Shown here one piece after another: positions 1,885 to 44,345 of a stretch of DNA of 64,000 bases. This DNA comes from Octopus vulgaris (taxonomy: Eukaryota). The position numbers were made by a program, and so were the translations under genes. The notes under the pieces were generated by a model. That model was given only the letters and a program-made list of their open reading frames with translations. It was not told the DNA's origin and made no database searches. Numbering within the stretch: the first letter of the stretch is position 1; each line of letters begins with the position of its first letter. The DNA is taken from contig OX597827.1 in NCBI GenBank assembly GCA_951406725.2, forward strand, positions 37,820,001 to 37,884,000, in the 5' to 3' direction.

Positions 1885-3288
1885 CTTTTGAGATTATTCA
1901 TGAAAAGTGTGCTCTTGAGGAGAGCAACGTTGATAGTTGTGCCAACACAGATAAAAAAATTTCGGCGGTTGCCGCAGTGGCAACCAAGAATATTGATATT
2001 AATGTTAATCAGCTCGTCGAGCTATTTAAAAGAATGAAAGAGGAGGGTGGTGATGTTAAAATATCACCCTCCTCTAGTATCGTGGAGGCCGAGAAGCGGA
2101 TCGTAGTGTTTAAAACCTTCTGTCCACAAAGCAGAAGGTTCAAACACTTTGAAAAGGATATCATCGAAAAATGCCTGTCCCCGATTTGGAGGGACATAGT
2201 ATACATTGCCAGAGGATGCACATACGGCACTGTGGAGGTCCGCTTCTCGGGGCAAGAGGTGGCCTGCGGGTATTCCGTGAGTCCCCTAAAAACTAAGGAG
2301 GTGGTACTTCTGCCGACCTATATGGGACGTAGGACGTCCCGGGTCAAGTTTGCAGAAGTGCCCCCAGAAGTGGACCCTGTAGAGGTAGTGGCCGCCCTGT
2401 TGTATAACAGGGCAGATAAAATCAAAATACTGCCAGTAACATGCTCTGCCCCTCAAAATTTGCTTGGGCGGAGCATTACTGTTATAATCCAAGGGACACA
2501 GGAGGACCTTCAGGTCCTTCCTGAGAGGGTACTCGTGGGCGAGAATGTGGTCCTTAGGGTACAGGTCGAGGGCCGAAAACCCATCTGCTACGCCTTGGCA
2601 AAAAGGGCCACATTCGTGTGGACTGTCCTAACAATAAAAAGAAACCGCAGACAATAAACACAAAGGCCCCTCAGACAATAAAAAAATCTCTACCCTTGCA
2701 AATTCACCTACCCCTACAAAAACAAAAAGTCCCACTCCTCTGTTACGGTGTCAACCCCAAAACAAACTGACAAAAAACCCAGCCCCTGCACACACAAACC
2801 CCTACATTCTTAAAACCTCCCACCCCCTTAAAAATTGCGGCGCCTACTGAACAAAATATAACTACCCCAGACGATACCATGGAGGTATCAGAGGGAGAAT
2901 TTACGATTGTTCGTAAAAGAACCCATGCATCATCCCCGTCTACATCCCCTACAAAAAATAATAAAAACGATGACACACCACAGACACCAAAAAAAAAAAA
3001 TCCCGCCCAACTAGCCCAGATAAAAAAGGACGAAAAGACGAACTCGTGTTAATTGAGTACGATATTCGAGACAAATATAAGAATGATATTGTGGTCCCGC
3101 ATCACACAGCAAGACTGTACGACAAACACAAAGATCTAGACGAAAGATGTGCTTGGATTGCGGAAAGAGTGTACAGACAAATTAAAGACAGACACCCAAA
3201 GCCATCCGGCGTATCACGAACTTACCGGGCTACTTGAGGAGGGAGGAGTGTGTGGTGAGGTCGGCCCCAACTTCTCCAACGAAATGTA
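1881..3288 (+). pseudogene. LINE ORF1 (gag-like, zinc knuckle), frameshifted
   Basis: ORF 1881-2657 ends VEGRKPICYA. Restoring one base near 2596 gives CYACGKKGHIRVDC (CX2CX4HX4C), followed by a Pro/Thr/Lys-rich tail. The end coordinate is approximate. Confidence 0.75.
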
Positions 3289-3309
3289 AGTAGAACTTTT
3301 ACTTTTTAT

Positions 3310-6300: not shown

Positions 6301-6320
6301 CGTCTTGCACGCATTGTTTA
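3310..6320 (+). pseudogene. LINE ORF2 (APE endonuclease + reverse transcriptase + Zn motif), broken by stops and frameshifts
   Basis: Motifs CLNVRGL, ATETKL, LGDFNA, SYLDRI, TDHRMV, GYWKLN, NFRPITLLNTELKILAK, DQSKASDRV, VRQGCLLSPLLY, YADV (degenerate YADD), KGGLG, CPQC..ETVLHAL. Confidence 0.9.
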
Positions 6321-6441
6321 TAATCTCATACGTAATTTCATTCGAAATGTTTAACCGTGTAAAGCTACTTCACCCTTTATGTTTGTCTGTCCTTGTTTGT
6401 CCCCTCTTTGTAAATGCCTAAATGGCATATTATATGAAATA

Positions 6442-6848: not shown

Positions 6849-7969
6849 GTATTAGAATAATGGAATAAAAGTTAGTCATAATAAGAGATCTCCCAAAAAT
6901 CTATTTCCTTATTTTCAAACAGCCATACCAACAAATTCATTTTGGGTTGTTGTTTTTCATCAATTTTTGTTGTTTTTGTTTTGTTGTTGTTGTTTTGCTT
7001 TTTTCAGATTATGCCGGTATCTTCAGAAAATTTGATTTTGTTTAGAAAAATATTCATGTAACAAATTCCAGAAGGTAAAAAGTAGAATATTCAAAAGTCA
7101 AGGTGCGTGTGTGTGTTTGTGCAATATCCGCCGCCTCCAGCTCCTTTTTCTTTTACGTCAAATTCCAATATAATCAAAATTTATACTGTCTGCAAAATAT
7201 CTGTAGAAAATTTCATTTAAAAGGTATTCGTTTTTCAGAAAGTTATGAGGAAACAAATTGGAGGGGCGCGTACTTCTGTAGTTACGCCGAAATAAAGTAC
7301 CAGTCAAGTACTAGCCGATTTAATTATCAATCTCCTCTTTAAAAAATGTGATTTTTGTGAGAGTATTAGAAATAGCTGTGTGTGCTTTGTTACTGAGAAC
7401 CGTTTACGGCGAAGGTAAAGAATACGCACACCACCCGTACTCGATGAATAAGGTTAGGGTTACGCCGAAAACAGGTGGTGTGCGTGTTCTTTACCTCCGA
7501 CCATTTACCTATAACACCGATAACAAATTACCAATAATTTCAAAGCAACAATCCCAAACACCAATTGCTCTATCTATACTAAGAGCAAATAGAGTAAGAA
7601 GAATTAATAGAGAATCTAATTCAGTAATCTACATATTTAGTTGACATCATTTATGCCCCTTGACTAAGCGGTGTTTGGTAGATTTTGTTCCTATAAATTC
7701 CTTATCCAGTAAATTTGAATAACTATTTTTGCTAAATGAAATGTGTTTTAATTGATTGGATAGTTTCTTTTGTTGTGTTGATTTAACGAAAAGAATGAAT
7801 ATCATTAGAACTAACTAATTTTTTCATTTCGAAATTTTTCTTCACAAATTCAACTTCAATGCACTAACCTTGTTGCGGTAAACGAACTCAGAAGACACCG
7901 ATTCAATGTTGACCTTCAGTGATTAGAAATATTCACAGGAGGTTTTCCGATCTTAACTAATATACAAAG

Positions 7970-9805: not shown

Positions 9806-10545
9806 TTTTCTATAACAAAAATTAGACATGATGAAACCCTCAAAGTTACAAAAGTGCTTTATGAATAGTTCTTATCCAAATCATGACTATCTCCTTTTTC
9901 TTAATATGTATATATCATTATCATTAAATGTCTGCTTTTTATTCCAAACAGCCATAACAACAAAATCACTTCTTGATTCTTTTTTACAAAAATGATGCCA
10001 GTATATTGTTTCATTCAATAAATAACGTTTTTACATTACATATTTAGAATAAACTGTGGGTTTTGCAAATAGCGAATTAAAACTTGAAATGAAAAGATTG
10101 AAATAAAGAATGAGAAACTTTGGAAATGAAAATGGAATACTCTGCAGTGAATCCAACAAATAATAATATCTGTGATAAATTGGAGTTCAAAAATTCAATA
10201 AACTTCAGAAATCGAAATTATAGGGAATTCCTTAGAACACCTCCAAAATTGGATTTTACTCATAAGGTATTAGAATCTTACATATATACCATTCTGCCTA
10301 AAAAATGGATCTACAAATTCAATATCCCTACATATCTCACATCTATTTTCTTTCCTCCACGTCACTCTTTATTTTGTATCCTATCTAAATTAACTATTAC
10401 TTAACCATCCTCTCACACCATCTCTGATGAAGGGATATAATTAATAAATATCCTTGAAACAGCTGTAAGACCTTCTATCTATAAATGTTCTAATATCTAC
10501 ACAGCCTTGGTTTTTTATCTCATTACGCAAAAAATTTTGTAATCA
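9800..10545 (+). mobile_element. Penelope-like element 3' remnant / pseudo-LTR
   Basis: Contains a minimal hammerhead at 10421-10470. 10080-10250 loosely resembles a frameshifted GIY-YIG C-terminus (EMK-W..ILCS..NNIC..LE..FKNSINFR). Confidence 0.55.
10421..10470 (+). ncRNA. Minimal type I hammerhead ribozyme motif
   Basis: TCT-CTGATGA-AGGGATAT(aattaataa)ATATCCTT-GAAA-C-AGCT-G-TA-AGA: complete core, 8-bp stem II, palindromic ACAGCTGT stem III, predicted cleavage after 10467. Confidence 0.8.
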
Positions 10546-10929: not shown

Positions 10930-11567
10930 GCCAACACACGAAACTCTCGGCCTTTGAGACACTCTGATCCTTCTGCTAGAGCAATGACGAAAGACCGAAA
11001 CCTCTGGAGATATGCTATGACTGCAAAGACCCAACAAATAACGTGAGTTCATAGCTGTTTCCTGCACCAGCTTCACATAGAAGCCCCAGCCCATCCAAAG
11101 TACCTTGGATCGCAGGACGGCCTGCTGTGCTTACCTAGGATCACAGGACGGCCTACTGTGCTTACCTTGGATCGTAGGGCAACCTACTGTGCTTGAGGAG
11201 ACCTATTGAGTCAAGTACATCAACATCAAAAAATCAAATGGAAATTGTAGTCGTGATACCTGTGCCGGTGGCACGTAAAAAGCACCATCCGAACGTGGTC
11301 AATGCCAGTGCCACCTTGACTGCCTTCCATGCCAGTGGCACATAAAAAGCACCAACCAATCGTGGTCATTGCCAGCCTTCCCTGGCACCTGGCACATAAA
11401 AAGCACCCACTACACTCACGGAGTGGTTGGCGTTAGGAAGGGCATCCAGCTGTAGAAACACTGCCAGATCAGACTGGAGCTTGGTGCGGCCTCCTGACTT
11501 CCCAGACCCCAGTCGAACCGTCCAACCCATGCTAGCATGGAAAATGGACGTTAAACGATGATGATGA
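10930..11567 (+). mobile_element. RTE LINE 3' end/UTR with (GAT)n tail
   Basis: Shares CTGGAGATATGCT, GGCACGTAAAAAGCACC units and the GGAAGGGCATCCAGC...CGTTAAACGATGATGAT tail with the RTE-coding copy at 37590-38535. Confidence 0.8.
11101..11193 (+). repeat. 3 x 31-bp tandem repeat inside the RTE 3' UTR
   Basis: TACCTTGGATCGCAGGACGGCCTGCTGTGCT repeated three times with substitutions. Confidence 0.9.
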
Positions 11568-11585
11568 TATACACTCATACACACA

Positions 11586-13090
11586 CAGGGTGTAACGGGT
11601 AAATTGGGGCCATTTAAATATTTTTAATATAACAGGTATAACTCAGAAAAATCAAATACATCAAGTTTTATGTTTATGCCAATTTATTGTGGAGAGTTTT
11701 GCACTTATTTCAGTTTAATGTGACCATCATTTGCTTTCTTTACCAGTTCAATCCATTTACGAAATGATGCACATGCCTTAACTATTTCTTCGTTTTTCAT
11801 TGTACTGAATTCTCGCTTGAGCGAAGCCTTCAATGAAGACACAGTTGTGAGAAGTTGCATTGGATATTGCTTCAGCTGTGCCCCATAGCCAAAACTCACA
11901 TGGATTCAAATCTGGCGAGCTAGAGGGCCAGATATGTTTAGGGACAAACATAGGCAATTCCTCCATCAAAAGTTCTTGCACACTTTTCAGAGAATGGGCT
12001 GGTGCAGAGTCCTGTACAAACATGACTTGACTTGCATCATAATGCTTCCTAATCCAAGACAACAAAACTTCTAAGATTTTGAGATACTCTGCTGTGTTGT
12101 TTTTAAGAACTGCTTCAATAAAATGAGCAGGCATCAATTTCCCATCACTTGCAGTAGCTCCAAAGACCATAATGGAAACTGGATTCTTGCTATATGCATA
12201 ACTGAAAGAACTTGGGAAGGATTGTACACTATCACTCGTGAGTTTTGACTGTTTGCAATTTCGTCTATCATAAACTTCTTTTCATCCATGACGTTGCAGA
12301 CATTTCCACCATGATGTTTCAGATGACTAAGAAGTTTGAGACTTCTTTCAGCTAGAATGGTTTTGGAGTGGGTAGTTAATATGTTACAGTGTCTCCTCAT
12401 GTACAATTTCATATGAAGGTCTTGTCTCACAGTCCTAGAAATGGTCATCTTACTGATTCTTCGATCTTGAGCCAACTTCGCCGTCGATTTTGATGGGTTT
12501 GACTCAATCGATCTTTCAAACCCTGTTAACCCTTTAGCATTCAAACTGGCCATATCAGGCCCAAATATTCTACCTGTGTTGTGTTGAAACTGACCAGATC
12601 GGGCCTCTCACAACTACTATACAATATAATTCTAAAATAAAATAAATGCATCATTGAAATCGCAAAGCTACAAGATGATGCATAATTAACTGAAAACAAA
12701 GTGAATAAATGGGCCTTAAATTTAACAGAATAATCTAAATGCTAAAGAGTTAAGGAGCGAGGTGTGCGTTTTCAGTCACTACGAGGACTGTCAGGCCCTC
12801 TCTGAACATCCTGACTTTTCTTCAAATTGGCTGCAACTCTAAAAACAAGATTTGGCATGCTTTGTGGCTCTAACAATCACCCCAGCACTTTTGCCGGCAC
12901 AGAATAATTTTGAAATTACACTTCTGCAGTTTAATTCTTTATTAACATTCATAGTTTGTTCAATCTGAAATACGAAATAGTACAAGTGATCATTCAAGCT
13001 GGTAATATTTAAAATTAATACTCCAACAAAATCTGTACAATTAGAAATATACCCATTTGAAATTTGACCCAGTTTACCTGTTACACCCTG
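11586..13090 (-). mobile_element. Full-length maT-like Tc1/mariner transposon (37-aa catalytic spacing), decayed
   Basis: TIRs CAGGGTGTAACGGGTAAATTGGG (11586) and the reverse-complement match ending at 13090, followed by TA. Transposase pieces MDEKKF, VQDSAPAH and WPSSSPDLNPCEF. Confidence 0.9.
12530..12749. mobile_element. piggyBac-type MITE with TTAA duplication, nested in the maT element
   Basis: TTAA|CCCTTTAGCATT...AATGCTAAAGAG|TTAA. Removing it restores the transposase frame (RTPRSLTGFERSI). Confidence 0.85.
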
Positions 13091-13598
13091 TATATCATTC
13101 AATTGCATAATATTCTTAACGGAGCTTTATGTCGCAGTCGGCGTCTTCCAAGAAGTCTCACTAATTCAATTTTAATCGGAATCAAATTTAGTTTTTTTTT
13201 AAATTATGCTTGACTAGTTATAAGCTACATTTAGACAGAAAATACTTAAAATCTGGGCCCGACATCGACACTTTGAATCCACACCATTCTTTTAATTTTG
13301 ATTAAGAATTATTATACTGATATTAATATGAAAGAGAAATATTAAAGGAATATATTGGTAAAGGTTTCGTAAAATTTTATCCATTAGAAAAAAGATATTT
13401 AATTTTAATTCTCAAATTTTTATCAATTTTCGCGTGATATTAAAGGGACACTACTCAGATATAACTACAGATTTCTACCCCCTCCGAATTTGGATGATCA
13501 TAAAAATGGATATTTTTTAATGAAATTTTCTACGAATATGTGTTATATTATGTAGATTCCGAATATACAAAATTGAGTGGGGAGTGTTTTAGGAGGGG

Positions 13599-14390
13599 TG
13601 TGGTGGGGAATTACGAAAAATTCACCAGAGTCCACTTCAATTCGTCTTAACTTTCAAGAAAATTGATATTTTCTGATGAAATTCTCTATAAATATACCGA
13701 GGAATAGGAATTGGGGGGGGGGCTTAATTTTGAGAACTATTCCCCATAAGGGGGTGTTTCGAAACACGTCGCCCGTATTCTTTTCTTTTTCTCCGTTTTG
13801 AACGTTTGTGCACCGTAGATTTCTACTGACGCAACAAACAAGCAAAGAAACCCTCACTAGAAAACTAAAAATAACAGCTAAAGGTCTGGTACACAGAAAT
13901 ATATTAAGACGATTTATCTGTTGCATACGATTTTTTTTCACTTCAAGTAAATTCCCGGGTAAACGTTTCTAATAGAAAGGCAGAAGACACCAGAAGCAAA
14001 AATAAGGAATATACATGCACAGTTAAATATATAAGTGTAAAGTATAATTTGTTACATAATTTCTATAATAAACATGATACTCAATGGAATAATTCCTCGT
14101 TTGAACTTGTTTAATTACATGTGTGTGTGTGAATGATAGAAATCGATGGATGCACAAAACGGAGAAAATGTAACAAATATGGACGACTTGTTGTGAAATA
14201 CCCCTTTGTGAGGAACAGTTCTCAAAAATAACCCCCATTTGTTTTCCTCTCCAAAACTCCTGTGTCCTCGGAATCTACATAGTCCGAGGTATATTTGTAG
14301 AGAATTTCATTACAAAAATATCCATTTTCTTGAAAGTTAAGACGAATTGAAGTGAACTCCGGTGGATTTTCCGAAATTCCTCACCCCACA
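13599..14390. mobile_element. Foldback/MITE-like element with ~200-240 bp imperfect inverted arms
   Basis: 13599-13800 is the reverse complement of ~14155-14390 (for example CACTTCAATTCGTCTTAACTTTCAAGAAAAT, TTTTGAGAACT, TTTTCTCCGTTTTG). Confidence 0.8.
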
Positions 14391-15849: not shown

Positions 15850-16590
15850 AGAAAGACATGACCAGAGAGGAGATTCCGGAAGGATGATATACTAGGGAGG
15901 AAGGACTGAATAACAACTGGCACCCGGCAGTTGCCAGGGCCACTGGACTGACTCCTGTGCAGGTGGCAAGTAAAGAAATACCGTTTCGACCCTGTGCTTG
16001 AGGAGATCTATGAGTCAAGTACACCAACATCAAAAATCATTAGAAACTGCAATTGTGATCCCTGTGCTGGTGGCACGTAAAAAGCACCATCTGAACGTGG
16101 CCGATGCCAGCGCCGCCTAGACTGGCTTCCGTGCCAGTGGGACATAAAAAGCACCATCCAAACGTAGCCAATGCCAGCGCCGCCTAGACTGGCTTCCGTG
16201 CCGGTGGCACGTAAAAAGCACCATCCGAACATGGCCGATGCCAGCGCTGCCTAGACTGGCTTCCGTGCCGGTGGCACGTAAAAAGCACCATCCGAACGTG
16301 GCCAATGCCAGCGCCGCCCTGACTGGCTTCCGTGCCAGTGGCACGTAAAAAGCACCAATTTGATCGTGGCCGTTGCCAGCCTCGCCTAGCACCTGTGCCA
16401 GTGGCACGTAAAAAGCACCCACTACACTCACGGAGTGGTTGGCGTTAGGAAGAGCATCCAGCTGTAGAAACACTGCCAGATCAGACTGGAGCCTGGTGCA
16501 GCCTTCTGGCTTCCCAGATCCCCGGTCGAACCGTCCAACCCATGCTAGCATGGAGAGCAGACGTTAAACAATGATGATGATGATGATGAT
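15850..16590 (+). mobile_element. RTE LINE 3' UTR with an expanded internal tandem array
   Basis: Same tail family as 11567 and 38535, with a (GAT)n end. Confidence 0.8.
16071..16420 (+). repeat. 67-bp tandem array (4 units, one 63-bp variant and a partial unit)
   Basis: TGGCACGTAAAAAGCACC-type motif starts at 16071, 16138, 16205, 16272, 16339 and 16402. Confidence 0.92.
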
Positions 16591-20060: not shown

Positions 20061-20233
20061 TGTCATTACTCTCTTTGTTTCTCTTTCGCTTCATTCACAC
20101 ACACACATGCACACTAGCCTTTAAAAACATATACCAAAACAAAGTAACATTATAAGTTTATAGTCTTAATATTATAATACATATATATATATATATATAT
20201 ATAATTTTCTCTCTTTCTCTGTCTTTCTGCCAG

Positions 20234-20532
20234 TAAATGGATACTTTGAATCATTCAACACCCATAACAAAGACAAAGATGAAATCAGTAAATGGATGGA
20301 ATTAATGAGGACAAGATCTGGTGTTCAGATAAAACGTATTCGTAAACCATGGCACACAGAAAATCCCAGCATTCAAGGTGTATGGCATTCATTCGCCAAT
20401 AAAAGCCCTTCTCTTAATGTTACTGAATTTCCAGATAAAGAACTTGGAAAGTGTTTCAAATCAAAAATGTCTGCAACAGATTATTTATTGTCTCTGAAGG
20501 AGGAAATTTCAAAGGAGAAAACTTCACAATAG
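20234..20532 (+). CDS. MRPL43: MRPL43 coding exon 3 (terminal)
   Basis: Pyrimidine tract plus CAG acceptor; LNGYFES...RTRSGVQIKRIRKPWHTENPSIQGVWHSFANK matches the mL43 motif RKPxHTxNPSIQGxW; TAG at 20530-20532. Confidence 0.95.
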
Positions 20533-22700: not shown

Positions 22701-23526
22701 GCATTAATTTCCCTTCATGTAGGCTCTGCTAACAAAAAAACTGTGATGTTTTTTTTCCATTAATTTTTTTTTTAATCCGCAATTTTTATAAGAATATTTC
22801 AATAATTGTAGAATGTCTTTCAAAAACAGTCCACCCTTCTTGCTTAGAAAGCATGTATTCTGGAATAAAATATAACTACTTTTTGGGACCTGAGAAAGGA
22901 AATTAGTGCTGAGTGAATCCAAAGCTCAGTCTTTGATGACCTGACAGCAAAACAATATTTATATATTCAATTTTTTTCCCATAATTTTGATTTCTCCTTA
23001 CACCTTAATATACACTCAAGATAGAATTTAATAATAACTAACAAAAAAACTTATTTGTTGAATTCATTTAAAATAGAAATAATTTTCTACAAGAAAAGAA
23101 ACTCATGCCAATACATATATAACACCTTCACATGTGAGTCAGTTTCTCTGTTTAATGATCTGAAATATCAGGGTATGCAGAACATTAACAATATTCCTCT
23201 CACAAAGGTCGCAGTTTTTTGTTTTTTGTTTTTGAAAGCAGTTGTAAGGCATACTGGGCATATGCATATCTTTCCTTGAGGAAAATAATTGAAAGTTATT
23301 TTTATAGATAAATTGAGTATTTTGAGTTTGTTTTAAAATAATATGAATCATTAAAAATCGGGAACGTAAAGTCAACATTTAATAAACATAAGGAATTACA
23401 TGTAACGTATATTATTTAAAATAGTTAATGTTTTCTGTCTGAGAAAATGTTGCAGTAATATTGTCTATATAAATCGAATCTAAAGAGTGTATGAAGATCT
23501 GATACGAAACTATGAATCAGTCTACA

Positions 23527-23683
23527 ACTTCCGGTTCAGGTTTTTCGTCTCTGCCATATAAAAAGCTGACGTTCTTCTGTAATTTCGTTAGTCAGGGGTA
23601 GAAGATAACATAAAACAGGCAGCGAAATTATTGTTCGCTACCTGAGTGTGAGTCAGTGTCTATAGGAACTCTCCTCCTAACAG
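23527..23683 (+). promoter_or_regulatory. ELOC: Probable ELOC promoter and non-coding first exon
   Basis: ETS-like ACTTCCGG at 23527, TATAAAAAA at 23557 and a CAG|GTAAGA donor at 23684, at the start of a CpG-richer stretch. ELOC coding exon 1 starts with an acceptor, so an upstream exon is required. Confidence 0.55.
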
Positions 23684-26600
23684 GTAAGAATAATGGCACC
23701 TTGCATGCTTACTGAGATAGAGATATACACTTTCTGATTAACTTAATTAATATTTCATTTATCTCTACTCATCTGACAGGTGATAGAGTCAATTTAGAGA
23801 GCAAACTGTGTCACTGGGTGATTTGGGTATATTGACTTTGGATAAACACTGTTAAAATCGGGAATTGTCGACGTTCATGCCTTTCCCAAGGTCATGAACC
23901 GACTTAAGTTAATTGAAATGATCGTAGATGTAACTGGGTATTGAAACCTTGGCTTGTGGTCTCGTCTCGCCGGAAGCTTGGCTAGTGCTCGTCATAAACA
24001 ATATACATATGTGTGTAACTGGATGACATTGATTAAGCATCTTACAATCGTTTATTTATTTGTTTTTAATATATGTTAACTAATCTCACCGTCATTTTCA
24101 ATTTAAAGGCGGTCCGGATATGCAAGGTAAATGAACTATCTATTTCTCTTGGTTTGGAAAAAGCCCTATAGTTTAGTGCAGCGGTAAGTGGGGGCAGTGT
24201 TAGCGCCGTAAATGAACGTGCTTGAATCGAGGTTCGAAACCGCTTTGCTGACTTAGTTCGCATAGACGTTGAACCAGATATTTCACTGTAACCTGCTCAC
24301 TTCCATTGTTCTGAATGTAAACCCTGTTGTAGAGGTACATTCACTTACATCCCTCCAGGATTCAACGAGATCGATCGATTCACTTGACACACACTCTCTC
24401 CCTATCTTTCTCTCACATACACATATTGGTTTCGTTTTCGTAAGTCATGATGCTCAACTTATTTCTTTAGAAATGATAGAACTACCGTACTCTTTTCAGT
24501 GTTTTGTATTCCCAGTCCAAATCCTGCCGGAAGCCAATTCTACCTTTGATCCCACCTTAGTTGACAATGTACTAGGGATATCGATTAAACCTGTTCAGCT
24601 TATCTCTTTCTCTGTGTGGTGCTAAAATAATATTTCATTTTTCTTGCTGTATGTGCGCTCTTATTTTTATTACAAAAATTCACTTATATCATATGTGGTA
24701 ATCACTCCTAAAAGGGATAGTCATCTTCCGGTGATTTTGTCTCAATTGCTGGTTGCAGCACGTTGAAATGCACGCTTCTTTGGGAGTTAGCAGGGTCCAT
24801 CATCCCATTGAAGGATCCCTTTAATAGTGATAAGTCAGTCACTGTCCGCTGATATGTAGGGAACCGTCTGCATTCCTTTTGTCACGGATATAGTTTACAG
24901 TTGTTAGTAAACGAAATAGTAAGATACTATTCGTGTGCAGAGTTTTTTCAATATTTACAGTCGCGTGAAAGTCTGTGCCAAATCTATTTAAATAAATATT
25001 TATAAACTGTACGTTACCGTACATTTATTATTATGCCATTTCGTCACTGAATTCATTATCCAGCAATCGCATCTATCAATTACATTGATATGTTGAAATA
25101 CATTTTATTTCGTCATATTTCACCAATAAATCTTATCCTATCGAACCAATGAAGGAAGTCTCTAAGCTTCCCTCATTGTCCTGCCAGATAAAGCAGCCAA
25201 ATCTGCCTTGAATCACATCCTTTCACTCAACCAACTATGGAATCTCTAGGTTGTTGTCCGACCTATTAGAAAGAGTAGCAAAATCTCCCTCATGATACTG
25301 TACTGTCTTAAAAAGGAAAGGACACATTGGATAATGATATACCACAGATGACTAGGATAGTCATGAATGGAACACCTTTCCTCTTAAGTCTGTTCAATGA
25401 AGACTGAACTGTGGCTACACAAGAATAACTGATAGTTCATCATACAATACATTGATATATATTGGACGAACATTTTATATAGCCTCGTCGCCATGTTCTG
25501 TGAGGTCGCTACCGTACTTCCTCTCTTTATCTCTTTCTCTATAATTTTTTGTAATTATTATTTCATTTATGTAATTAATCATATTTACTTTTTAATTTCT
25601 TTCTTATCAAAATGTATTCGACCAAAAACAGAAGTACCTAGGGAAAGGTGCTAATTTTTTAGATATTTATTTTTAAGCTCCGCTAGTAATTAATGTCTTT
25701 ATTTTTTGCGATGTTATAAGTGGTCCTACCAACTGTGTGTGTATGTGTACGTGTGTGTGTGTCTGGTTGCCTTGTTAGTAGTAAGGAGAGAGAGGAGATG
25801 GTTGACTGTTGTGTTTTCTCTGCTTAACTCCCTCTACATTGAAATACCCGGGTAATTATCTTCTTTTTCCCCTACCGCTATTCGCTTAATCAGACTGTGT
25901 TTCTATACATAAGGTGTATGTGTATGGTACTTTATTATAAGGTTTAAAAACCACAAGACTCTAACTGTGGAAGATTTGCTTGAAAGATCTTTTGAAACTC
26001 TGGTTTCTACTCTGTAATACACAGTTAAAATACTTACCTAGGACTATTGCATATTCCATAGTCAAAATTCTTGATTTATTTAATTGTAGGCATTTCTCTG
26101 TGTATCAATGTCTATATATGCATGTCTGTTGATTTGATTTGTAAAGTCATGTAAATATCAGATGAGTTAATGTTTTCGTTGCGTTTGTTTTGTGGTTCTG
26201 TTTTTGTTGTTTTGTTTTTTAAGACTGACCAAATCATATCAAATACAAATTTGTTCGGAATTAGTAAGATTTTGTTGGAAAGTATAATGACAATTATGTC
26301 TGTAGATACTTTGCTCTTTCTAATATATATAATGAAAAATACTTGTTACTCCTCTGGCACATACAATCTGTGTGTAATGTATTGATTGCATTGTTGATGC
26401 ATTTATAGAACTCAACACTAATTTATGTCTTTCTACTGACAATGTTACCGTGGTATTTAGCTATTGTTATTTAGCATGAGATCGTTTCTGTCCTTGCCGT
26501 AGGATCGAACCGCGCACATCATACTTTGCCTTCATATATCTCCGATTTCCTCTCTATAAAAGAAATTTCTTGTAAGAATGGACTTTGTCTCTCATCCCAT

Positions 26601-28654
26601 TCTCATCCTTGTGACGATATTTCGATTCCGGCTTGAAACAATTACGCTACTCATGCTGTTTGCATATGAATTAGAGTGTCTTGTAGCAAGAAGTGTTGTC
26701 TACGTTTCACGTGGTTCTACTTTACCTTTCATTTTGACTTCGACGAAATTACGGTGCTTTCCAGTTATTGGCAGCCAACCATTTATTTACAAATGGATTA
26801 GTAAATAAACTATTATATACTCGAGGTGTGTGTAATAAAGCTGATCGGCAGACTTTCAGAATAGCTATCACTACCTCATGGAGAAGGAAAAGGGCAATGA
26901 ACCGGGTGATGGGTCAATAGTTTATTTACTAATTTCCTTTCGTAAAGAAAAGAAAAAGACCGAAATTACTTCTATTAACAGCCAACGAGAGAGCATCTAC
27001 TTGATCACACGACTTGTTAGAAATAGTAGCCAAATCTCCTTCAATCATCATTTTAAAAATGGAAATACAATTTGGTTAATGTTATCTAAGATGGATCAAA
27101 CACTAACGGAGGGATGATCGAGACTGGAATGCCTTTGATCATGCTTACTACCTTACAAATATTAAGCTGGTCGGTAATCACTTCTTGAGCCGATGAAGTT
27201 AAATCCCAGTTCTGGAGTTGATTTAATCCACTACAGCCCCTTACTGCTTTATATCCATATAGTTATCTGTTTTGTTTATTTATTTTAGCATTAATATTGA
27301 TAATTTCCTTTAGATTAGCATATATATATTTGTGTGAGTGTGTTTGTATTCTATTTTCTGTTATTAAATTGTGGTCCATCTTCATCGCTCAACCTGCTAG
27401 AAATAGCAGTTAGATCTATCTCAAATTACGCCCTAACATCTCTTAGAAATGTAAAAACATTTGATAAGATTATGAAGTTCTTTGATGTATGACTACTTTA
27501 TAGGAAAGACTTGCGTATTTGGGTTAGACACGGAGGTAACATTTATACGTAGTAATAGTTGAACTTCAAAGCAATCGCCAACGAGCATTATGATCACAGA
27601 TAATCCAAACATGGCCATCATATAACTAGGACTACATCAAAATAACAGCCAAATGTCCCTAAAAACACTCCATCTTGTTGGTTTATTATTTCTCTGGAAT
27701 TTAAACACAAGTTAATAAAATCAACTTAATGATTGTCATTTTTGTTTTCATAATTTTGTTGTTAATGAATTTCGACCGAATCGTGTTGATATTTAGGCCT
27801 AGATTAGTCCTGATTGTGTGTTGACCAATAATCTAGAACTGTTTGCTCAATATAACCTTTTTAAGACCCTAGGATGTAATTTTGATGAGTATTTGGATCA
27901 ACCATAAAGGTTCCTCTTGTTCACACTTGTATTGACTTCTAAAACTTGTAATTCCTGTTTAAATGTTTGTTCTTGAGCTGTTTTACATCTCTGTTATGGT
28001 TAAATGTTTGTGATTCAGTATATTACTAGTTAGAGGGGCTAATGTTTTCTTAAATGTGAAACACTGAGAAATTTTTAAACATCCAGTGATTGCATAGATC
28101 TATGTCAATCAAATGGTTCAAATAAGGTTACTACACAATAATTGTACCTAAAAAGATATCTGGAGAGACCAACCATTAACAAGGCTGGGCTAAGAAATTA
28201 CCTAGAAGAGAGAATTTATTAGGGAGCAACATCTGAAGATAATTTTTAGTTTCTTCAAATAGCCAACTTTTTTTATGATATTGATACTTGTTTTGTTATT
28301 ATAAAGACTCAAAATTTCAGCATTAACTAAGAAAACTGGTAAATGGAATGTCAATGTTTTGTGTTTTACAAGAAAAATTCTTTGGGTTATAAAGAAGCAC
28401 AGACATTACTAGGCTTTCTTCATGTTGGGAAAACCGTTACTAGCCTGTGAGATTTCATTTGTGATGGAATTTGATGAGAATCTAGACACTACAAACACTT
28501 TTCTACTTAACATATATGTAAATAGGAAGATACACTTATCTGAAAATATTATTTGGTTACATTTAAACTTTTGACAGATAATGAGAGCAAGGTTGTTTTC
28601 AAGCTATTTACTTCATCCTTATAGATGAATATATATTTTTTTAATCACACGTAT

Positions 28655-29630
28655 AGGGTGCATTCCAAAAGAAGTCTTTGAAAGTGGTGTCCAGGACCCT
28701 TATCACAGCTTCCTTCATCTTCTCGATGTCTTCAAAATGACTGCTACTAGAGTTCTCTTACAGCTTGGAGAACAACCCAAAGTTACAGAGAGCAGGGCCT
28801 GAACTGTGAGTAGGGTAAGGGACAGTCTTGATGGAATTGTGGACTTGTGCAGGTGCCACTAACTTATGGAAGAACCTTTGGCCTTTTGTGATGAAATCTC
28901 TTCCTGAACTTCCTCAAAACATCTTCAAAGTACTCTGCTGACCACCTGACTGGAGGAAACTCAGTGGACTTGCTTTGCCTGGTTTTTTTGAGTCCGGCAG
29001 TGCCAGGATACTTCTATTGGGCACTCTGTCTCTTTGTTTCTGGATCATATCAGTAGATCCAGCTTTTATCACAGGTCACCAGAGACTTAAGTACTCTTAG
29101 ATTGGAGGTAATGAGTTCAACCATCTCCCTGCTGTCACTGGCATGTCTTTCATTCTGTTCATCATTGAGCATAAATTTTGTTCATGTTCAAATCTTCATG
29201 AATAATTGTGTGTACAGTTTCTGCACCACCTCCAAACTGTATGCTTACTGTCTTTATAAACACACAACAGTCTTCATTCAGAAAATTACAAATTTTCTAA
29301 ACCAGCTCTGATATTCTGACATCCCTTTCACATTCCTCATTGTCTCTCACCTTCTCTCTACCATCCTTGAACCTCTTGTACCTGCAAAAAACAGATGCTT
29401 TGGTTACACTAGTTAAGCTGTATGCAGTCTAGAGCATTTCATAAGTTTCTGAAATAGTGTTTAGTAAAGTGTGTTCAAAGTGGTTACTGCTGTCTCCTTC
29501 AATCTAGAATTAAAGTAGTTGGCAAGACAGCTTACTTGGTTGTATAGTAATGATAGACTAAAATTACAATAATATAGGGCAGTTATGATCGCCTCGCCTA
29601 AAAAAAAGTCTCAAACCTTCTGGAATGCAA
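28655..29630 (-). mobile_element. Mariner-family transposon, heavily decayed
   Basis: Inverted ends GGGTGCATTCCAAAAG and CCTTCTGGAATGCA; degenerate SPDLAPCDFWLFPKLK-like segment at 28760-28810. Confidence 0.65.
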
Positions 29631-31328
29631 TGTGAATATTGTGCCAGACATGATTCTAATTATGAACCTTTATTTCCAAACTAAGGACAACATGCTTATC
29701 CATTTGAGCATTGCCCTAACAGATTAGATTCCTAGTCTGATTCTCATCCAATACCATGTATTCTTGGAAAATCACAAACCTAATAAGGAATGGAGGTTAA
29801 AAATGTTATGTATATATATATATATATATATATACATTGTGGCTAAAATACAGGAAAATTGAATTATTAACCTTCTCATATTTGTGTAAGTTATACTACA
29901 GTTGTAAGTATAATAATAGCCTGACTGTTTTAAATGTTTGGTATTGTATTAATATCAAGGTATCTATTAAATTTACTTCAGATTTTAAGAGGATGAACTG
30001 TAAGAAATAATGTTTCCCAATAGACGTTGGGAGGCTCTAGAGCAGCTAGCCTGGTCTATGGTTAATTTAAATGTTATAGTCCAGTAATATAATTCATATT
30101 TATTTCTGTATATTTTTCATGGATTCATCATTTCCACTTATACTTTTCTGTGTTGGCATTGGTTGGATGGATTTATTTCAACACTGTCTTGTCACTTGTT
30201 GCAATCCAGGAGCCAACCACCCTGATATCAGACCACACATTTCTGCAGGTTCTTTCCACATGGATTGCAAGCAGTACCAGTGCAGTCTTGTCTCTTGCAA
30301 ACTACAGCTGATACTGCTGAATCCCAATTTTTCTTTCTGCACATACTCTGTCATTCATGTATGTTCTTATTAAACATTCAACAAAGCATCTTTAACCCCT
30401 TTCTTTTCAGCCTTTCATATTCTCCACATTCAGTTCCCATGTCTTATTACAATGCAGTATCCTATTCTGTATGCAATTTCATACAATCTATCCTTTACTC
30501 AGACATAGATCTTTGTTGCCTGCAAAAACAATAGTCCCCTGACATTTTTCCAGTTGGGTCTCGGGTCAACCAAAGCTTTCTGAGTGGATTTAGTAGACGG
30601 AGGTTGACTGAGGCCTATTGTGTATTTCTGTATGTGTGTTTCTGAATTTTTGTGTTTGTTCCCCTGAAACTTGGTGGTAAGTGCTGGGGTCAGTTCATTC
30701 CACTAATGCCTCTCAAGATGCCCTTGCATGGATGTAGTCCAATGGCTGAAAAAGTAAAAGATAAAGAGGTGTGATTCTCCCCCTCTACTGTTTCTTTACA
30801 TCCCTTAACTTAGAGGTTTAGTACAGGAAACCAATCACATGAATACCAGACTTAAAAATAAGTACTGGGATCATGGCTGCAGTCAGATGTTTGAAACAAG
30901 TAAAAGATAAAAATAACTGTACAACTCATGTTCATTCTTTCGTTTAATGTCCACCTTTCCATGCTAGTATTGCTTGGAGGGGAACTTATTTGAGGCAATT
31001 CAAGTAAAGTCTTTGAAAGCACTGAGTGACTAGTTGTAATGTTACCAATTATGTGTGAACATACCACAATATTACTCAGATATTGACAAACCAAGCCAGG
31101 CAATGTCAACATTCATACATACTTGCATGCACACAACACAAACACATGCACAGATATGATTGTGTCTTAGATGAAAACCACTAATTTGCCTGTCAACAGT
31201 GCAGATACTCTAAGTATAATACATAAATAGCTGTGTGGCACCGTGGGCCGGTGTCTTCAATTATAACCCCAAGCTGACTAGGGTCTTGTGAGTGGATTTC
31301 ATTGATGGAAACTGTGTGTGTGTATGTA

Positions 31329-31700
31329 TAAATGATACAACAAATGGGCTGAGGTTCACTACAGCTGTTTCAGATGTATTTTTTATTGATGAACAAATCA
31401 ATTACATCATGTAAAAAAAGTTTTCTTCAGGTGAATTACAAATTAAAATAGAATTTAACATTTAGGATTTTTCACACAAAGAGTATAGAATACATATTGA
31501 CTTTCTCAACTAGCACTGAGATGAGTCAGTATACATTCTATACTCTTTGTGTGAAAAATCCTAAATGTTAAATTCTATTTTAATTTGTATTTCACCTAAA
31601 GAAAACTTTTTCGTTTACATGATGATGTAATTGATTTGTTTATCGATAAAAAATACATCTGAAGCAGCTGTAATGAACCTCATTTCATTTTTGTTATTTA
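31329..31700. repeat. ~370 bp near-perfect palindrome whose arms carry hammerhead-like motifs
   Basis: 31350-31508 is the reverse complement of 31517-31682, with a loop of about 8 nt. Confidence 0.92.
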
Positions 31701-33824
31701 TAGTACACCAAACTTGGAACCTTCCCTGTGCTGGATCTTGATCATGAGGAAATATTACCTTATTTGGAAACAGGTAAATATTGGTGACAGGAAAGGATTG
31801 CAGCCATAAAAATATATGCCTCAACAACTTCCATCTGATCTATGCAAGCATGGAAAAGTGGACATTAAAACAATGAGTCCTTAATCTGGTTTCAATGTTT
31901 TTGCTCCACTCATCAACACTGCTGATTAGGTCACCTAGGTAACAGAAGCTATCAGTGAATTTAACAAGTTTGAGATTTAAGCCTCTCAATTTCAGGACCT
32001 ACTTCAGTGTTTGAAACTTGCATGTTTAATTCTGTGATTAATTTAACTGTGAGAACTAAGTCATTAGCATACAAGAATTTCCATAGTCAGCTGCTCTTGA
32101 ATTCCTGTGTTATGACCTGGAGAACTATATAAGGGCTGACGGCTGAGCTCTGATGAATACCTACTTATATGCCCTCAGTGAACCCATTAACTCCCACTTT
32201 GTTGACACACCTTTGTACATAGCTTCCACTATTTTCTCAATTCATTCATCTTCAGTTTTATTAGTGACTGCCAAACTATGAAGTATAGTTTTCTGGAAAG
32301 GAACTTCAGCATCATCACTTAGCATCCATTTTCTATGCTGGCATAGGTTAGGCAGTTTGACTAACTAGTAAACTGGAGAGTTGCACCAGGCTCCAACATG
32401 TTTTGGCTTGCTTTCTACAACTGGTTGCCCTTCATGCTTCATACTTCACCAAATTTCTTCAGCATCTCGGTAATCATCCATTGCTACTTTATCTACCTTT
32501 TTTTATATCTTTCTATCTTGCCACAATCAAACCAATAGCTTGTCTCCCTTTTGGAACAACGCCTCTTTTTCTTCATATATTCTTTTCATTCAACAATGAT
32601 TTATATCAATTTCATACCTCTTTCTTCTCAGAATTGGTAAAGACAAGTACCAGTATCATATCATATGCACTTTTTCCTAGTAACATTCAGTTAACACAGG
32701 CATATCAGTTTAGCTTCTTTCCTTGCCAGATGTACCTACCTTCAAGCTACCTCACATCATTCCTTGCTCTACCCCACCTTTCCTTCATTCCTTCTCATCT
32801 TGTCTCTTCGGCTTTATATCTTGCCTAATTGTTCTGTCACAGTTCTCTATCTCCTCCCTTGATATAGATATCACCTAATGCATGAAAGTTCACTTGGTAA
32901 AGAGATCTTTTAGCTTTTATACCTTCCTTCTACAGGTTGTCTTCTGTCTCTGAGTTGATCTACTTCTGATCCTGAGGTCCTGATTGCTAGTCAATATAAG
33001 TGGCATGCTTTTCATCAGGATGTGGTGGGGTACTTGGTATTTATAATCTCAGCTGTCTCTCTTGTTGGAAATGAAATCTAACTGGCTTGTGTTCACCTGA
33101 GTGGTAGGTGATTATCTAATTGCTTGGTTGGTTTCTGAACATTTTTTTCCTTCTTATTGTTAATGTGTTGGTGCAGAGTTAAAATTGTAGTAAACTTAGT
33201 CTGCAATATAGCTTCTATTTTCAATGAAAAAAGATATTGTCATAAGTCTTTAATGGCATAAGGGAAAACATGAAATTCTCTATTTGCTTAGATTTTTTTT
33301 TCTTCACAACTCTCTCTTCATCCTGGTGTAAGAAATTATTGTTTTTGTAATGAAGGAGCATGGTCTAGTGGTTAGGGTGGTTGACTTATGTTCATAAAGT
33401 TTTCAGTGTACTCTTGGACCAGGTGGGTTGTTGTGTCCTTGAGCAAGGCACTTCATTTTACGTTGCTCCAGTCTACTCTTCTGAAAATGAGTACCAGCTC
33501 AGTGTTGGAGCAGCTCCCTCTTCCTCTAGCTGTCCCATCCTTGACATTTGTTCAGGTCAGGGGTGGAAGCATTGGATGAACATCTATGTTTCCTTGCAAC
33601 TACATAGGCACCTAAAACAATTAGCAGAAGTATGGTACATGCAAGTAATGACTATAGTGATAGGGGTTGTAATAGAGATGGCATGTAGGAGTGTGAGATG
33701 GGATACTTTACAGTATCTGATTTATGCATCTTGTTTCAAATTACAAGTTCCAGATAGGTTAATTTTGCCAATCATCCTTCCAACTGCAATAAAGAAGCAT
33801 TAATAAACTAGTGATTATGTTCAC

Positions 33825-34195
33825 TGACACAAAACGCCGCCGCCGTGGTGATCTCATTCTTGTTCACAACATCATAAGCGGAAAGTGTAACCTCTCGAAA
33901 GAGCTGTTCTTCACTCCTGCTCCAGGGCGTTGGCTGCGGGGTCACTCCGAAAAGCTCTATCTGCGACGATTTCATCTCAATCGAAGGAGAGGGGGCTTTC
34001 TCTGTCCATGTTGTGGATCCATGGAATAAGCTGCCAGACGAGATAGTGAAGATGCTGACGACCACTCAGTTCAAAGTCTCTCTTGACCAGAAATGGCATG
34101 AACTCTTTGCATGAACACCTTCCCTGTACATAACTCCATGTCCCCCTACATGGCCTTGCTTTTTGCTTTTTGAGCCAAAAAATTAACTTAACTTA
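33825..34195 (+). mobile_element. CR1 LINE 3' fragment
   Basis: RRRRGDLILVHNII..LRGHSEKL..WNKLPDEIV..FKVSLD is typical of the CR1 ORF2 C-terminus; (TTAAC)n tail. Confidence 0.85.
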
Positions 34196-36404
34196 AGCCT
34201 TTCATTTTAGAAGAATAAGTAGGGGAATTACTTTTAACTAGTGAAAGTGGTGGTAGATATAGATGTGTGCAGCAAATGCAACTACACTGATTTAGACTTA
34301 TACATTGAGGTTGTTCATGTACAGAAACTAAGTTAACTGCAGATTGTTAGAATTATTAGGGCTTTGGATTTGTGTATTTGTTCTAGCACCAACATCATTT
34401 TTCACCTGTTTTCCATACTAGTATGAAGTGGGTGAGTTGATATAGTCTGACTCAGTTCTCGTTTAGAGTTATTGCCTTCTTAATTAGGTTGGATGACCAT
34501 ATCTTGCTTGTATGAAATGTTATCTTTCAGATGGTTTCTATAATTGAATACCTTAAAGTATACCATTTGCACTGGATAGTGTCTTGTTGCCAGCAAGTAA
34601 AGAATCCTCTCGAACTGTTCAATGCTCTCTTTATTTATTCAAGGCAAATGGCCAAGTGGATGAGTACAGAGAGAGAACCAAGGTTTGAAGGTGACAGAAG
34701 AAAGGGAATGTGATGGAGGGACTGATTGATAGGGGCGATAAAGTGATCAAGGTGGGTAAAATAGAAGCAGGGACGGGTAGCATGAAGGATGTGATGAGGA
34801 AGAAGGGTAATGAATGATAAAGAGTGAGTGAATGATGGTTAGCAATAAATAAGAATGTAGAAAGAATTGAATAATATGACTACATCTAATGGCATGGTAG
34901 GAGAGAGTAAGGATTGAATATGGACACATCCAGTGTCATCATTTGTTACAAAAATAATCAGAGATGAGAGATAAAAGGTAGTACACAATCAAGACTTAAC
35001 AGAAACATTAGAAAGGGACCTGAATGTAGATAAACATCCCAACCTCCACCATTGTTTTAACTTCCATTTTGCCAAGTTTAGATGGCTGATCACAGAACAA
35101 CTGATTTCTCTTATACCCAGATTTTCTCTCACAACATTACTATTCTGTTCATTATGCGCAATAATTTACCAATGTTTACTCACTTCATTTCTTTGTAGCC
35201 ATCACAGCTGTTTCACATTCACTACCATACAACATTATGTTTCATATACAAGCATCATATAATCTGCTCTCCACTTGAAGAGAAAAACTCCTCAAGTAAT
35301 AGCTTTCTCAATTTTTTCCACTCTGTTCTTTCTTTGGTTTCCTCTGCTTTTGCAGCACCCATTCCCCTCTGCTAATTTGATAACTTAGATGACAAGACCT
35401 ATCAACTACTTCTTGAGAGCCTTCCAAGTCATTGAAAGCATCTAATTTGTATTCATACTGTTGGTGCGCTTGTGCATTTATCATATATGAATTCTACCTT
35501 CCTTGTCAGCTTTCTTATGATCCTACTACACTTCTTGTGAGACACTGGATACACTGAATAGAATTTCTGAATTTATACCTATTCTTTTTCTATATATTGA
35601 ACAAGGCCATTTTCCTGATGGCAGTAGGGTCCTGCTTTCTTTCCTATTTACTAAAACTTATGTATTTGATAAGGATTTGCTTTCATGTCTGAAGTTTCTT
35701 CTGTAATTTACAGATTTCGCTTGTGGCTAAATGAGGTCATAGGCATACAGGGGTTCTCAACTTGCAACCTGTCTTAAACTCTTCCGTGATGACCAAAAGG
35801 ATTATAATAGATAGGAAGAAGCTGAGAATTGAATCTTGATAGACCCTTCCTGCTTGCTAAATTCATTGCTGTACTTACTGCTAACTCTCACCTTTGCTGA
35901 CTACACCTCTCTACATGGCTTGCCCAGCATTGACAAGCTATTCATCTACCCTTCATTTAACTTAGACCACCAGATTACAGAGCATGATGCTCTATCAAAG
36001 GTCTTCCCTAGATCAGCAATGGTATGTAGAATGGTTTATTCACAGATGGGTATTTCTGTTGTCTCACTAGAAAGATGGCATCTATAGTGAAGTTTCAAGT
36101 TTGCATAGTATTGTGGTTAGAATTTCTTGACATTTTAGACTTTTGTCAGAGAGAGAAAACGGTTTGTCCTTCACCTATCAAAGTGTTCCAAACATATTTT
36201 CTCTCTCTAACAAAAGATTTGGTCTGAAATGACAGAAAAATCTCCCAGTGTCATTCATACATAAAAAAATACTTTCTGGTGTATATTTTAGGAGTTTTCA
36301 TATAGACTGTTGTATAAATCATGTGAGTAGTGCTAGGGCACCACCTTGAAGAACTTTTTAGTTGAATGAAACAAAAATAAGTAGTGGGCTTATTAATATA
36401 CATA

Positions 36405-36567
36405 CACGACAGGCTTCTTTCAGTTTCCAGCGACCAAATCCACTCACACAGCATTGGTCAGTCCAAGGCTATAATAGAAGACGCTTTCTCAGGGTGCCAC
36501 ACAGTGGAACTGAACCCGGGACCATGTGGTTGGGAAGCAAACTTCTTACCACACAGCCATGCCTGCA
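36405..36567 (-). mobile_element. tRNA-derived SINE head and body, inverted
   Basis: Reverse complement reads GCAGGCATGGCTGTGTGGTAAGAAGTTTGCTTCCCAACCACATGG. Confidence 0.8.
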
Positions 36568-36732
36568 TCTATTGCGTAATTTTATTTCATTAATCTTGGT
36601 GTTACCAGGTATTCCTTCCACTAGTTTATTAATTGAACTGATCTGATTACTACAAGTAATGTTGTTGGTTTTATCTGTCACTTTTGAAATAATTCTAAAA
36701 TCCTGTCAATTTCTTTTAATTACCAGGCTTGA

Positions 36733-37589: not shown

Positions 37590-38535
37590 TTGTTTAGCTC
37601 TACATCATGTGTGTGAACAGCCATGCTACATGGCAGTGAAACATGGGCCGTGACTGCTGAGGATATGCATAAGCTTGCAAGGAATGAAGCCAGTATGCTC
37701 CGCTGGATGTGTAATGTCAGTGTGCATACATGACAGAGTGTACGCGCCCTGAGAGAAAAGTTGGATTTAAGAAGCATCAGATGTGGTGTGCAAGAGAGAC
37801 GACTGCGCTGGTATGGTCATGTGTTGCAAATGAATGAGGATGAGGTGGTGAAGCATGACCTTTGAACATTGGGCCTTACCAAGGCAATGACTAGTGACCA
37901 GGACCTTTGGAGATATGCTGTGCTTGAGAAGACCCAACAAACCAAGTGAGACCATAGCCCATGGCCTATGCCAATGGGTGTAACCAGCCCATTTATGAAT
38001 ACCCCTCATTCATTGGACAATAAACCTTGCTTGTGAAGACCTATTGAGGCAAGTGAAATCAAAATTGCTGACGTGACTGATGACAGTACTGCCTGATTGG
38101 CACTTGTGCCAGTGGATGTTAAAAGCATATCTGAACATGATCATTGCCAGGGCCACGGATTGGCTCCCATGCCGGTGACACGTGAAAAGCACCATTCAAG
38201 TGTGATCATTGCCAGCGTCACCTTACCAGCATGTGAAAAACAACATTCAAGCGTGGTCGTTGCCAATGCTTCCAGACTGGCTCCCATGCCGGTAGCATGT
38301 AAAAACACCATTTGAGCGTGGTCGTTGCCAGAAACGCCTGACTGGCCCTCATGCCTGTGGCACATAAAAAGCACCCACTACACTTGGAGTGGTTGGTGTT
38401 GGGAAGGGCATCCAGCTGTAGAAACTTTCTCCAGATCAGATTGAGTCTGGTGCAGCCTCTGGCTCACCAGTCCTCAGTCAAACCGTCCAACCCATGCTAG
38501 CATGGAAAGTGGGTGTTAAACGATGATGATGATGA
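37590..38535 (+). mobile_element. RTE LINE 3' fragment (ORF C-terminus, repeat-containing UTR and tail)
   Basis: TAMLHGSETW..NEASMLRWMC..RRLRWYGHV, then diverged tandem units and (GAT)n. Confidence 0.88.
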
Positions 38536-43257: not shown

Positions 43258-44345
43258 CAAGGGGGTATCCAAAAGAAACCAGACTTTTACAATATTATTT
43301 TATTCACTTAGTTTTTCTGCCTTCAAAGTATTCTCCATTTGAAGCGATGCAGTCCTGGAACTCTTGCGAAGTGATGTTCTTAATGCCTCTGTTGTTTTTT
43401 GTTTTTTTTTCTTCACCTCTTCCACATCTGCAAAACGTTTTCCTTTAAGGACTTTTCATTCAAAGGGAACACAAAAAGTCGCAGGGAGCAAGATCAGGCG
43501 AATAGGGAGGGTGATGCCATTTTTTGGTCAAAAACTGTCTCACACTCAAGGTGGTGTGCACAGGCACATTGTCATGATGAAACCACCACTCTCCACTTTG
43601 CTACAGGTCAGGATGTTTTCATCTCACCATGTCACACAAATGCTTCAGAACTGCCAAGTAAAATGTCTGGTTAACAGTTTGACTAGCAGGAGCAAATTCT
43701 GTGTGGACAATTCCTTTCACATCAATGAAATAAATCTGCATCATCTTGACATTGGAGTTCACTTGACGTGCTTTTTCGGGGTATGGTGACATCGAATGCT
43801 TCCATTGACTTGATTGCTGCTTTGTTTCTGGGTCGTAGCCATAGCACCAGCTTTCATCACCAGTGATGACCTTTGAAAAATGGTCTGGATCGACTTCCAG
43901 TTGTTCATTAAGTCATGACTGCTTTTGATCTTTCATGAGCAAGCGAGGCACAAATTTTGCTGCAACTCTATTCATTTACAATTCCTTGCTCAAAATTTGT
44001 TGGCAGAAGCTCCAGGACAAACCAGTCATATCAACAAGTTCGTCAGTTGTTAGGTGACGGTACTCCAAAGTCTGTTCATGAATTTTCGTGACATTTTCAT
44101 TAATTCTGGAGGTCAACAGTTATCCTGAACAAGGTTGGTCTTCTAGTAACAGGTAACCATTCCTAAAGCATGAAAACCACTTGTAAACTTGTTTTGTTCA
44201 TGGCAGCATCCTTGTAAGCTATTTGAGGTATGACAACTGTTTCAGCCACCATTTTCCCCTGCAGTAAACAGAATTTCACAGAAGCACACTATTCCTTTGT
44301 TTCAGCCATCACAAAAATTGACAAGCAGGGTGAGTGAACACACAT
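43258..44345 (-). mobile_element. Mariner (DD34D-type) transposon, decayed
   Basis: VITGDESWCYGYDPETKQQSSQWK and HPPYSPDLAPCDF on the minus strand. The terminus AGGGGGTATCCAAA recurs at 47150. Confidence 0.85.

Follow-up and report, generated by a model that had tools for sequence, protein, structure and literature searches.

A decayed head-to-head repeat insertion with a hammerhead motif in each arm, likely of Penelope-like origin, in ELOC intron 1 of Octopus vulgaris

The hairpin and its host intron

The window, a stretch of 64,000 nucleotides of Octopus vulgaris DNA (contig OX597827.1), carries ELOC on its plus strand. The gene has a non-coding first exon (23537-23680, +), which opens a CpG-retaining stretch (about 23500-28000), and coding exons at about 36750, 49750 and 52000 (Skp1_POZ domain). 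Contigs of all four runs guessed to be RNA (4/4) splice 23680 to 36724 with GT..AG ends, which gives a first intron of 13,043 nt (23681..36723, +; GT..AG if the cut is read three places rightward). This splice places the hairpin described below within ELOC intron 1, as the earlier note had proposed.

The hairpin is a palindrome of about 375 bp, in which the outer arms (31335-31410 and 31622-31697) are 87% identical and the inner arms (31415-31502 and 31524-31611) are 94% identical, with 21 nt between them. For the segment 31320-31710 the predicted folding energy is -229.5 kcal/mol (z -32.9), a stability equalled by none of 100 shuffles, and the arm alignment and the fold together bear out the palindrome of some 370 bp claimed before. 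Contigs of one further run, of a kind not on record, agree with both arms at every position covered (31358-31408, 31390-31466 and 31560-31771), the right junction included; none spans the centre of the palindrome (31516-31559). These contigs argue against an assembly error, although they may derive from the assembled sample and are then not fully independent. The runs guessed to be RNA have just short repeat-like pieces over the hairpin, which are informative neither way on expression or editing. An intronic stem of 175 bp is a plausible substrate for A-to-I editing.

The two arms are ends of one repeat family. The left arm (31327..31502, -) is a 5'-truncated family end that runs from the junction through a hammerhead motif to an outer end some 33 nt beyond the predicted cut, here called site 1, and it departs from the family majority at six of 163 positions. 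The right arm (31524..31701, +) is a second 5'-truncated family end, in the sense of ELOC, with 16 differences in 162 positions. Between them, the junction loop (31503..31523, +) is single-copy family sequence, here from the right arm; it contains a small hairpin and falls in the region where the junction-side ends of the family cluster. On the right, family homology extends to 31741, so that the element is asymmetric: the tail stub (31702..31741, +) represents the first 40 nt or so of a one-sided family tail of about 280 nt, the remainder of which is absent, and is followed by another repeat. This is the 3' part of an abundant repeat (families D14 and D19; 31744..31876, +), which adjoins the stub. 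The left flank (31231..31326, +) is a copy of an abundant SINE-like repeat (families D5 and D9) ending in a (TG)n/(TA) tract, and this tract is the likely insertion target of the hairpin.

Other features of the window include a broken LINE-like element with a reverse transcriptase (1878-6421, +; RVT_1, E 2e-21), fragments of DDE transposases (11781-12607, -, and 43619-43912, -) and a repeat with internal tandem units of 67 nt (16053-16385, with five in a row at 16053; 11251-11382; 38158-38375). An element of about 790 bp (13598-14389) has the appearance of a MITE, its long inverted ends of 75 nt (89%) and 82 nt (80%) enclosing 350 bp. An isolated, G+C-richer hairpin of 95 nt lies in AT-rich DNA at 7408-7502 (+), its only microRNA-precursor match being below threshold. 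Lastly, an open reading frame at 20170-20532 (+), for which there was no Pfam match, presumably resembles the C-terminal portion of mitochondrial ribosomal protein L43.

The hammerhead motifs

Both arms contain the hammerhead motif that had been described in them. The motif of the left arm (31355..31435, read from 31435 to 31355 on the minus strand, antisense to ELOC) has the features of a type I hammerhead, that is, an intact invariant core (strands CUGAAGA and GAAA) with stems I to III; stem I is of 5 bp, stem II is long and stem III is the palindromic C-AGCU-G. The cut site is GUA, with cleavage predicted between 31360 and 31359. The motif of the right arm (31591..31677, +), on the ELOC strand, fails the invariant core at two positions, G5A at 31598 and A15.1G at 31664, as reported earlier, and also has a stem I mismatch at 31673 that was missing from the first description. 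We predict that the ELOC-sense hammerhead is inactive. In isolation the two motifs fold no better than shuffles (z -0.42 and -0.26), and a constrained hammerhead fold of the left arm is possible, yet amounts to about 1e-4 of the monomer ensemble. An Rfam scan of the window gave 17 matches at E<=1, with no hammerhead among them and none at the hairpin.

Stem III of the left arm is identical to that of a motif at 10424-10463, in agreement with the earlier observation. The compact type I hammerhead at that place (10421-10463, +; intact core, 8-bp stem II, 3-bp stem I) belongs by sequence to a different family, and a further hammerhead-like motif (60745-60795, +; CUGAAGA..GAAA with a short stem II) is weak and may be due to chance. 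Two details of the proposed structure had to be given up. The "extra 13-20 nt" placed between core and stem II are really the 5' strand of the long stem II of the family, and the letters needed for a GATGTA/TACATC helix are found in just four of 47 family arms, two of which are those of the window locus itself. At its base, stem II has two facing CG steps that are decayed in many copies; where they are kept, the stem begins one or two bases from the core and runs on as a helix between a T-run and an A-run. Other families in the genome also have hammerheads with a long stem II and a C-NNNN-G stem III.

The 47 arms compared are those that span the motif in 63 loci, loci selected by motif being excluded. 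Their majority sequence has all 11 invariant core letters, so the idea of a mobile repeat family with an intact consensus core has held up. A complete core is kept by 15 of the arms and is damaged in the other 32; core, stem I and stem III are all intact in eight, including the left arm of the window. Substitutions affect 50 of 517 core letters (9.7%) versus 886 of 6970 background letters (12.7%; P=0.045), a background that includes A/T runs that are hard to align. Across the family, the decay of the core is close to neutral.

Ends, pairings and junctions of the repeat family

Used as a query against the genome (2.8 Gb), the hairpin returned 1053 first-look candidates, 40 of which were scored. 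A majority sequence of 782 nt, the reference, was mapped on 78 distinct loci, from which duplicates, GIY-YIG loci and microsatellite-only matches had been removed; these loci are the top matches of several similarity queries and of two exact patterns, a non-random sample in which the counts of ends and junctions are biased. The copies are about 70-90% alike and the family is old. They share the arm, some have a further stretch of about 280 nt with a sharp far end, and a few extend upstream of the junction into as much as about 480 nt of T-rich sequence. Searched for as an exact pattern, the junction region of the hairpin occurs at one place in the genome. The palindromic form as such is not a one-off, in line with what had been suspected: 31 of the 78 loci are head to head and 47 are single-armed. 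Elsewhere in the collection, one family copy plus its flanks is present four times (L103, L113, L114 and L115; G000:C7 and C29, three on C29), by segmental duplication, and two nested hammerhead-bearing palindromes of other families lie just upstream of a family copy in L182 (about 640-1260; G000:C3). An unrelated family provides a young head-to-head palindrome of 489 bp (96%), both arms of which contain an intact hammerhead with a long stem II (L091:3425-3909; G000:C1).

The outer ends (n=109) fall mainly at two places of the reference, in which the predicted cut is at 470: 42 are at 490-519 (site 1, about 33 nt past the cut) and 37 at 760-789 (site 2, about 310 nt past it). Just 4 of the 109 are at 460-479, within 10 nt of the predicted cut, and it follows that the RNA that was copied was mostly uncleaved. 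Among the 31 head-to-head loci, 15 pair site 1 with site 2, five, including the window copy, pair site 1 with a point inside the tail, and 11 have at least one shortened arm; pairs of site 1 with site 1 and of site 2 with site 2 were both absent. Three loci collected later (L190, L192 and L201) show the same pairing of sites. In seven head-to-head loci (L016, L025, L027, L028, L099, L104 and L111) the halves do not overlap, an arm standing on one side and the far end of the tail alone on the other. Simple repeats adjoin 70 of 83 site-1 and site-2 ends versus 22% of random 36-mers, in a test that took in the last 6 nt of the AT-rich end of the element itself. A target-site duplication was not defined for the family.

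The junction-side ends are less regular, with 47 of 109 at reference 280-339, near the small hairpin. In L001 and L009 it is the tail-bearing arm that contributes the central loop, in L003, L004, L011 and L018 the other arm. The varied junctions and the varying owner of the loop imply that palindromes arise anew at insertion, and, since the family also continues upstream of the small hairpin, that there is no single palindromic master. The palindrome is therefore not the fixed mobile unit that the earlier note had supposed. That the central loop might be the 5' end of the RNA was rejected, a query of 104 nt from upstream of it matching 17 places. Copying of the DNA from edited RNA was likewise rejected, since neither the arms (0 and 3) nor the family as a whole (A>G at 0.049 beside T>C at 0.053) showed an excess of A>G.

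Origin of the palindrome

We propose, with a probability of about 0.82, that the window hairpin is an old and decayed insertion in which two 5'-truncated copies of one repeat end stand head to head, that a Penelope-like machinery (GIY-YIG endonuclease plus reverse transcriptase) is its likely source, and that its sense hammerhead, as predicted, is inactive. According to the available text of two reports, endonuclease-bearing Penelope-like elements (PLEs) leave an inverted, 5'-truncated pLTR, a one-sided tail of 30-40 bp and a bias for (TA)n (Craig et al., 2021, PMC8557442; Adineta vaga Penelope, PMC3846280). The octopus family has in common with these insertions the inverted end copy placed head to head, the short palindrome near the junction, the extension on one side, here set by two sites, the (TA)n or other microsatellite targets and the hammerhead in the repeated end. 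The link to the inverted pLTRs of PLEs, raised in the earlier note, is thus the best reading, from the head-to-head ends, the one-sided tail and the (TA)n flanks. The tail differs in being of about 280 nt, as against 30-40 nt in what is available of these reports, and, with no coding part found, the family cannot be assigned to a clade (Neptune, Hydra or Poseidon).

A purified PLE protein, that of the Anolis carolinensis Poseidon element PAc, offers a further parallel. In the portions of that study at hand, both target strands are cut and extended, the tail is set by two internal positions at which synthesis begins, and uncleaved RNA serves as template, with ribozyme cleavage unneeded (Frangieh et al., 2024, PMC11167929). 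Two start sites downstream of the hammerhead, an uncleaved template, AT-rich targets and the extension of both strands are all shared with the octopus family; in contrast, the start sites of PAc are described there as adjacent and in the beginning of the frame, whereas here they are about 280 nt apart and in no recognised frame. The hammerheads can be compared with the type I motifs of metazoan PLEs, as far as these are covered in the accessible part of Cervera and de la Pena (2014, PMC4209133). Type I topology, a 5-bp stem I, a tiny palindromic stem III and the prevalence of solo, decayed copies are common to both, as are motifs on opposite strands a few hundred bases apart, pairs of this kind being reported at 100-700 bp in Schistosoma. 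The stem II described there is of 7-8 bp with G10.1-C11.1, whereas the stem II domain of the octopus family is of about 54 nt, has internal bulges and opens with an A-U pair.

By comparison with these systems, we hold that the family works like a PLE end and is probably PLE-derived or PLE-mobilised. In a (TA)n/(TG)n tract the endonuclease would nick both strands, and each DNA end would prime reverse transcription within an uncleaved RNA, one at site 1 and the other at site 2. Both copies would stop early and be joined where they stop, often near the small hairpin, which precedes the ribozyme by about 90 nt. In the window copy, the site-2 arm would afterwards have lost its tail except for 40 nt.

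The link to the PLE machinery is one of architecture only, because no coding frame was found to run in register with the family. GIY-YIG elements abound in the genome (6136 candidates in a family search), and, out of at least 1053 family candidates, a reverse transcriptase or endonuclease frame in register was not found in the 138 overlapping loci or in the extended regions. Comparison at the DNA level of 30 GIY-YIG loci with the hairpin and the tail gave no match, and walking upstream from the family led through about 480 nt of T-rich sequence to a microsatellite. Several PLE frames near family copies (L106/L133, L129/L134, L131/L135, L136, L137 and L025/L033) were considered as partners and rejected for wrong orientation, intervening repeats or ends of their own; these frames come from other insertions. 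The idea that the inner arm is a decayed C-terminus of the endonuclease found no support in tblastn. In L169, a second family piece of just 48 nt lies 3.6 kb off with no frame between, and a direct pLTR pair or a partial tandem around an internal region was not seen in the 78 loci. Near-intact and truncated elements with such frames do occur in the genome. L092:1430-6672 (G000:C16) is near-intact, with direct repeats of 456 bp (99%), in which a scan found no canonical hammerhead, and frames of 359 aa and 781 aa (reverse transcriptase plus GIY-YIG). L095:1568-3550 (G000:C8) is truncated and possibly of the Hydra type; it has an inverted pLTR-like end repeat, an asparagine-rich stretch, a GIY-YIG-like frame under the Pfam cut-off (E 0.002) and a hammerhead with a long stem II and a C-NNNN-G stem III.

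With about 1 kb of the family recovered and its coding partner not found, the non-coding nature suggested for the unit has stood so far. Possibly, although we think it rather less than an even chance, the family is a stand-alone element of about 1 kb that never had a frame of its own and uses Penelope proteins in trans; this differs from our preferred reading in the origin of the template only and not in how the hairpin is formed. The four longest copies (L134, L136, L170 and L182) start beside a (TA)n/(TG)n tract about 450-500 nt upstream of the junction and have nothing in common beyond it, no tail copy runs into shared sequence past site 2, and the 138 overlapping loci lack the frame. However, a simple-repeat tract within a 3' UTR would break the alignments at that point too (L093 has such tracts downstream of its frame), and in a family of this age the coding parents may have been lost or gone unsampled. 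Taken to its full extent, this reading would make the family a non-coding passenger of the Penelope machinery, every insertion being copied from the two ends of the broken DNA, with starts about 33 and 310 nt past an uncleaved hammerhead, a proposition that we advance tentatively and do not favour.

Fold-back synthesis of DNA, whether on the freshly made cDNA or in the course of later repair, is an unlikely source of the second arm in place of a second priming. Self-priming has been proposed, in the part of PMC3846280 at our disposal, the clustering of junction-side ends near the small hairpin would suit it, and the two arms of the window share three differences from the family majority and a long identical inner run. 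Nevertheless, three shared differences are reached by 19% of unrelated arm pairs, a frequency that also led us to reject homogenisation of the arms by gene conversion as not significant, and fold-back synthesis cannot yield the non-overlapping halves of the seven loci listed above. For those loci it is largely refuted; the symmetric subset might still have arisen in this way.

Less probable still is the proposal that the palindrome is itself a retrozyme-like mobile unit whose core on the ELOC strand was broken by selection against cleavage of the pre-mRNA. Animal, or non-LTR, retrozymes are likewise non-coding, PLE-related and endowed with a type I hammerhead; in the available text of bioRxiv 10.64898/2026.07.22.740005, they are defined as repeats in tandem whose successive units carry a hammerhead, whereas the octopus copies are dispersed, truncated and head to head. 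Not being head-to-tail tandems, the copies are not retrozymes: arrays of this kind were found in none of the 78 loci, save for one local duplication that includes the flanks (L052), and the variable junctions and loop ownership also speak against the proposal. As to selection, the majority core is intact, the damaged core does lie on the ELOC strand, and the sense arm is the more diverged (16/162 versus 6/163, P=0.029). This last asymmetry speaks for the proposal, but the additional changes are distributed along the whole arm, and asymmetries as large are seen in L038 (28 versus 14) and L045 (18 versus 33). At the divergence of the right arm, two or more hits in 11 core positions are expected by chance with P=0.27-0.30. 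Moreover, forming stem I and an open core within the hairpin is predicted to cost about 89 kcal/mol on the ELOC strand, and each strand has a single sense copy of the motif, whereas, by published accounts, such hammerheads work only as dimers and cleave slowly (PMC4209133; PMC6765202, for the parts available). In the ELOC pre-mRNA, the antisense arm would be transcribed first and would pair with the emerging sense arm, giving an inert double-stranded intronic stem. With chance hits in the core, a motif predicted to be buried, an antisense arm made first and the reported dimer requirement and slow cleavage, selection is unnecessary to explain the damage, and the claim made for it in the earlier note is unsupported.

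The long inverted repeats around a short spacer might suggest a foldback DNA transposon or a MITE bounded by long terminal inverted repeats. This is the least probable origin and, unless some subfamily combines equal ends with a fixed duplication, is already refuted by the unequal ends. Of the 78 loci, 47 are single-armed, both outer ends are at one site in 0 of 31 head-to-head loci, inner ends are cut at many points, as in retrotransposition, and the majority sequence contains a hammerhead core.

For ELOC itself, the decayed intronic stub is probably without consequence. What stands out in the family is the long tail and the clean pairing of two sites; the window copy, which we regard as probably twice-primed and PLE-made, is an ordinary genomic fossil. 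Our literature search found no paper on this repeat family, and long tails may still be on record. If the family is indeed a rider copied from both broken ends, the gap of about 280 nt would be the longest PLE "tail" in the literature compared here, itself available in part, and the non-overlapping halves would give clear evidence, from a genome, that PLE palindromes come from twin priming and not from fold-back synthesis. With start sites so far apart, the two primings are easily distinguished, and the family is a usable data set on the origin of the head-to-head palindromes and one-sided tails of PLEs.
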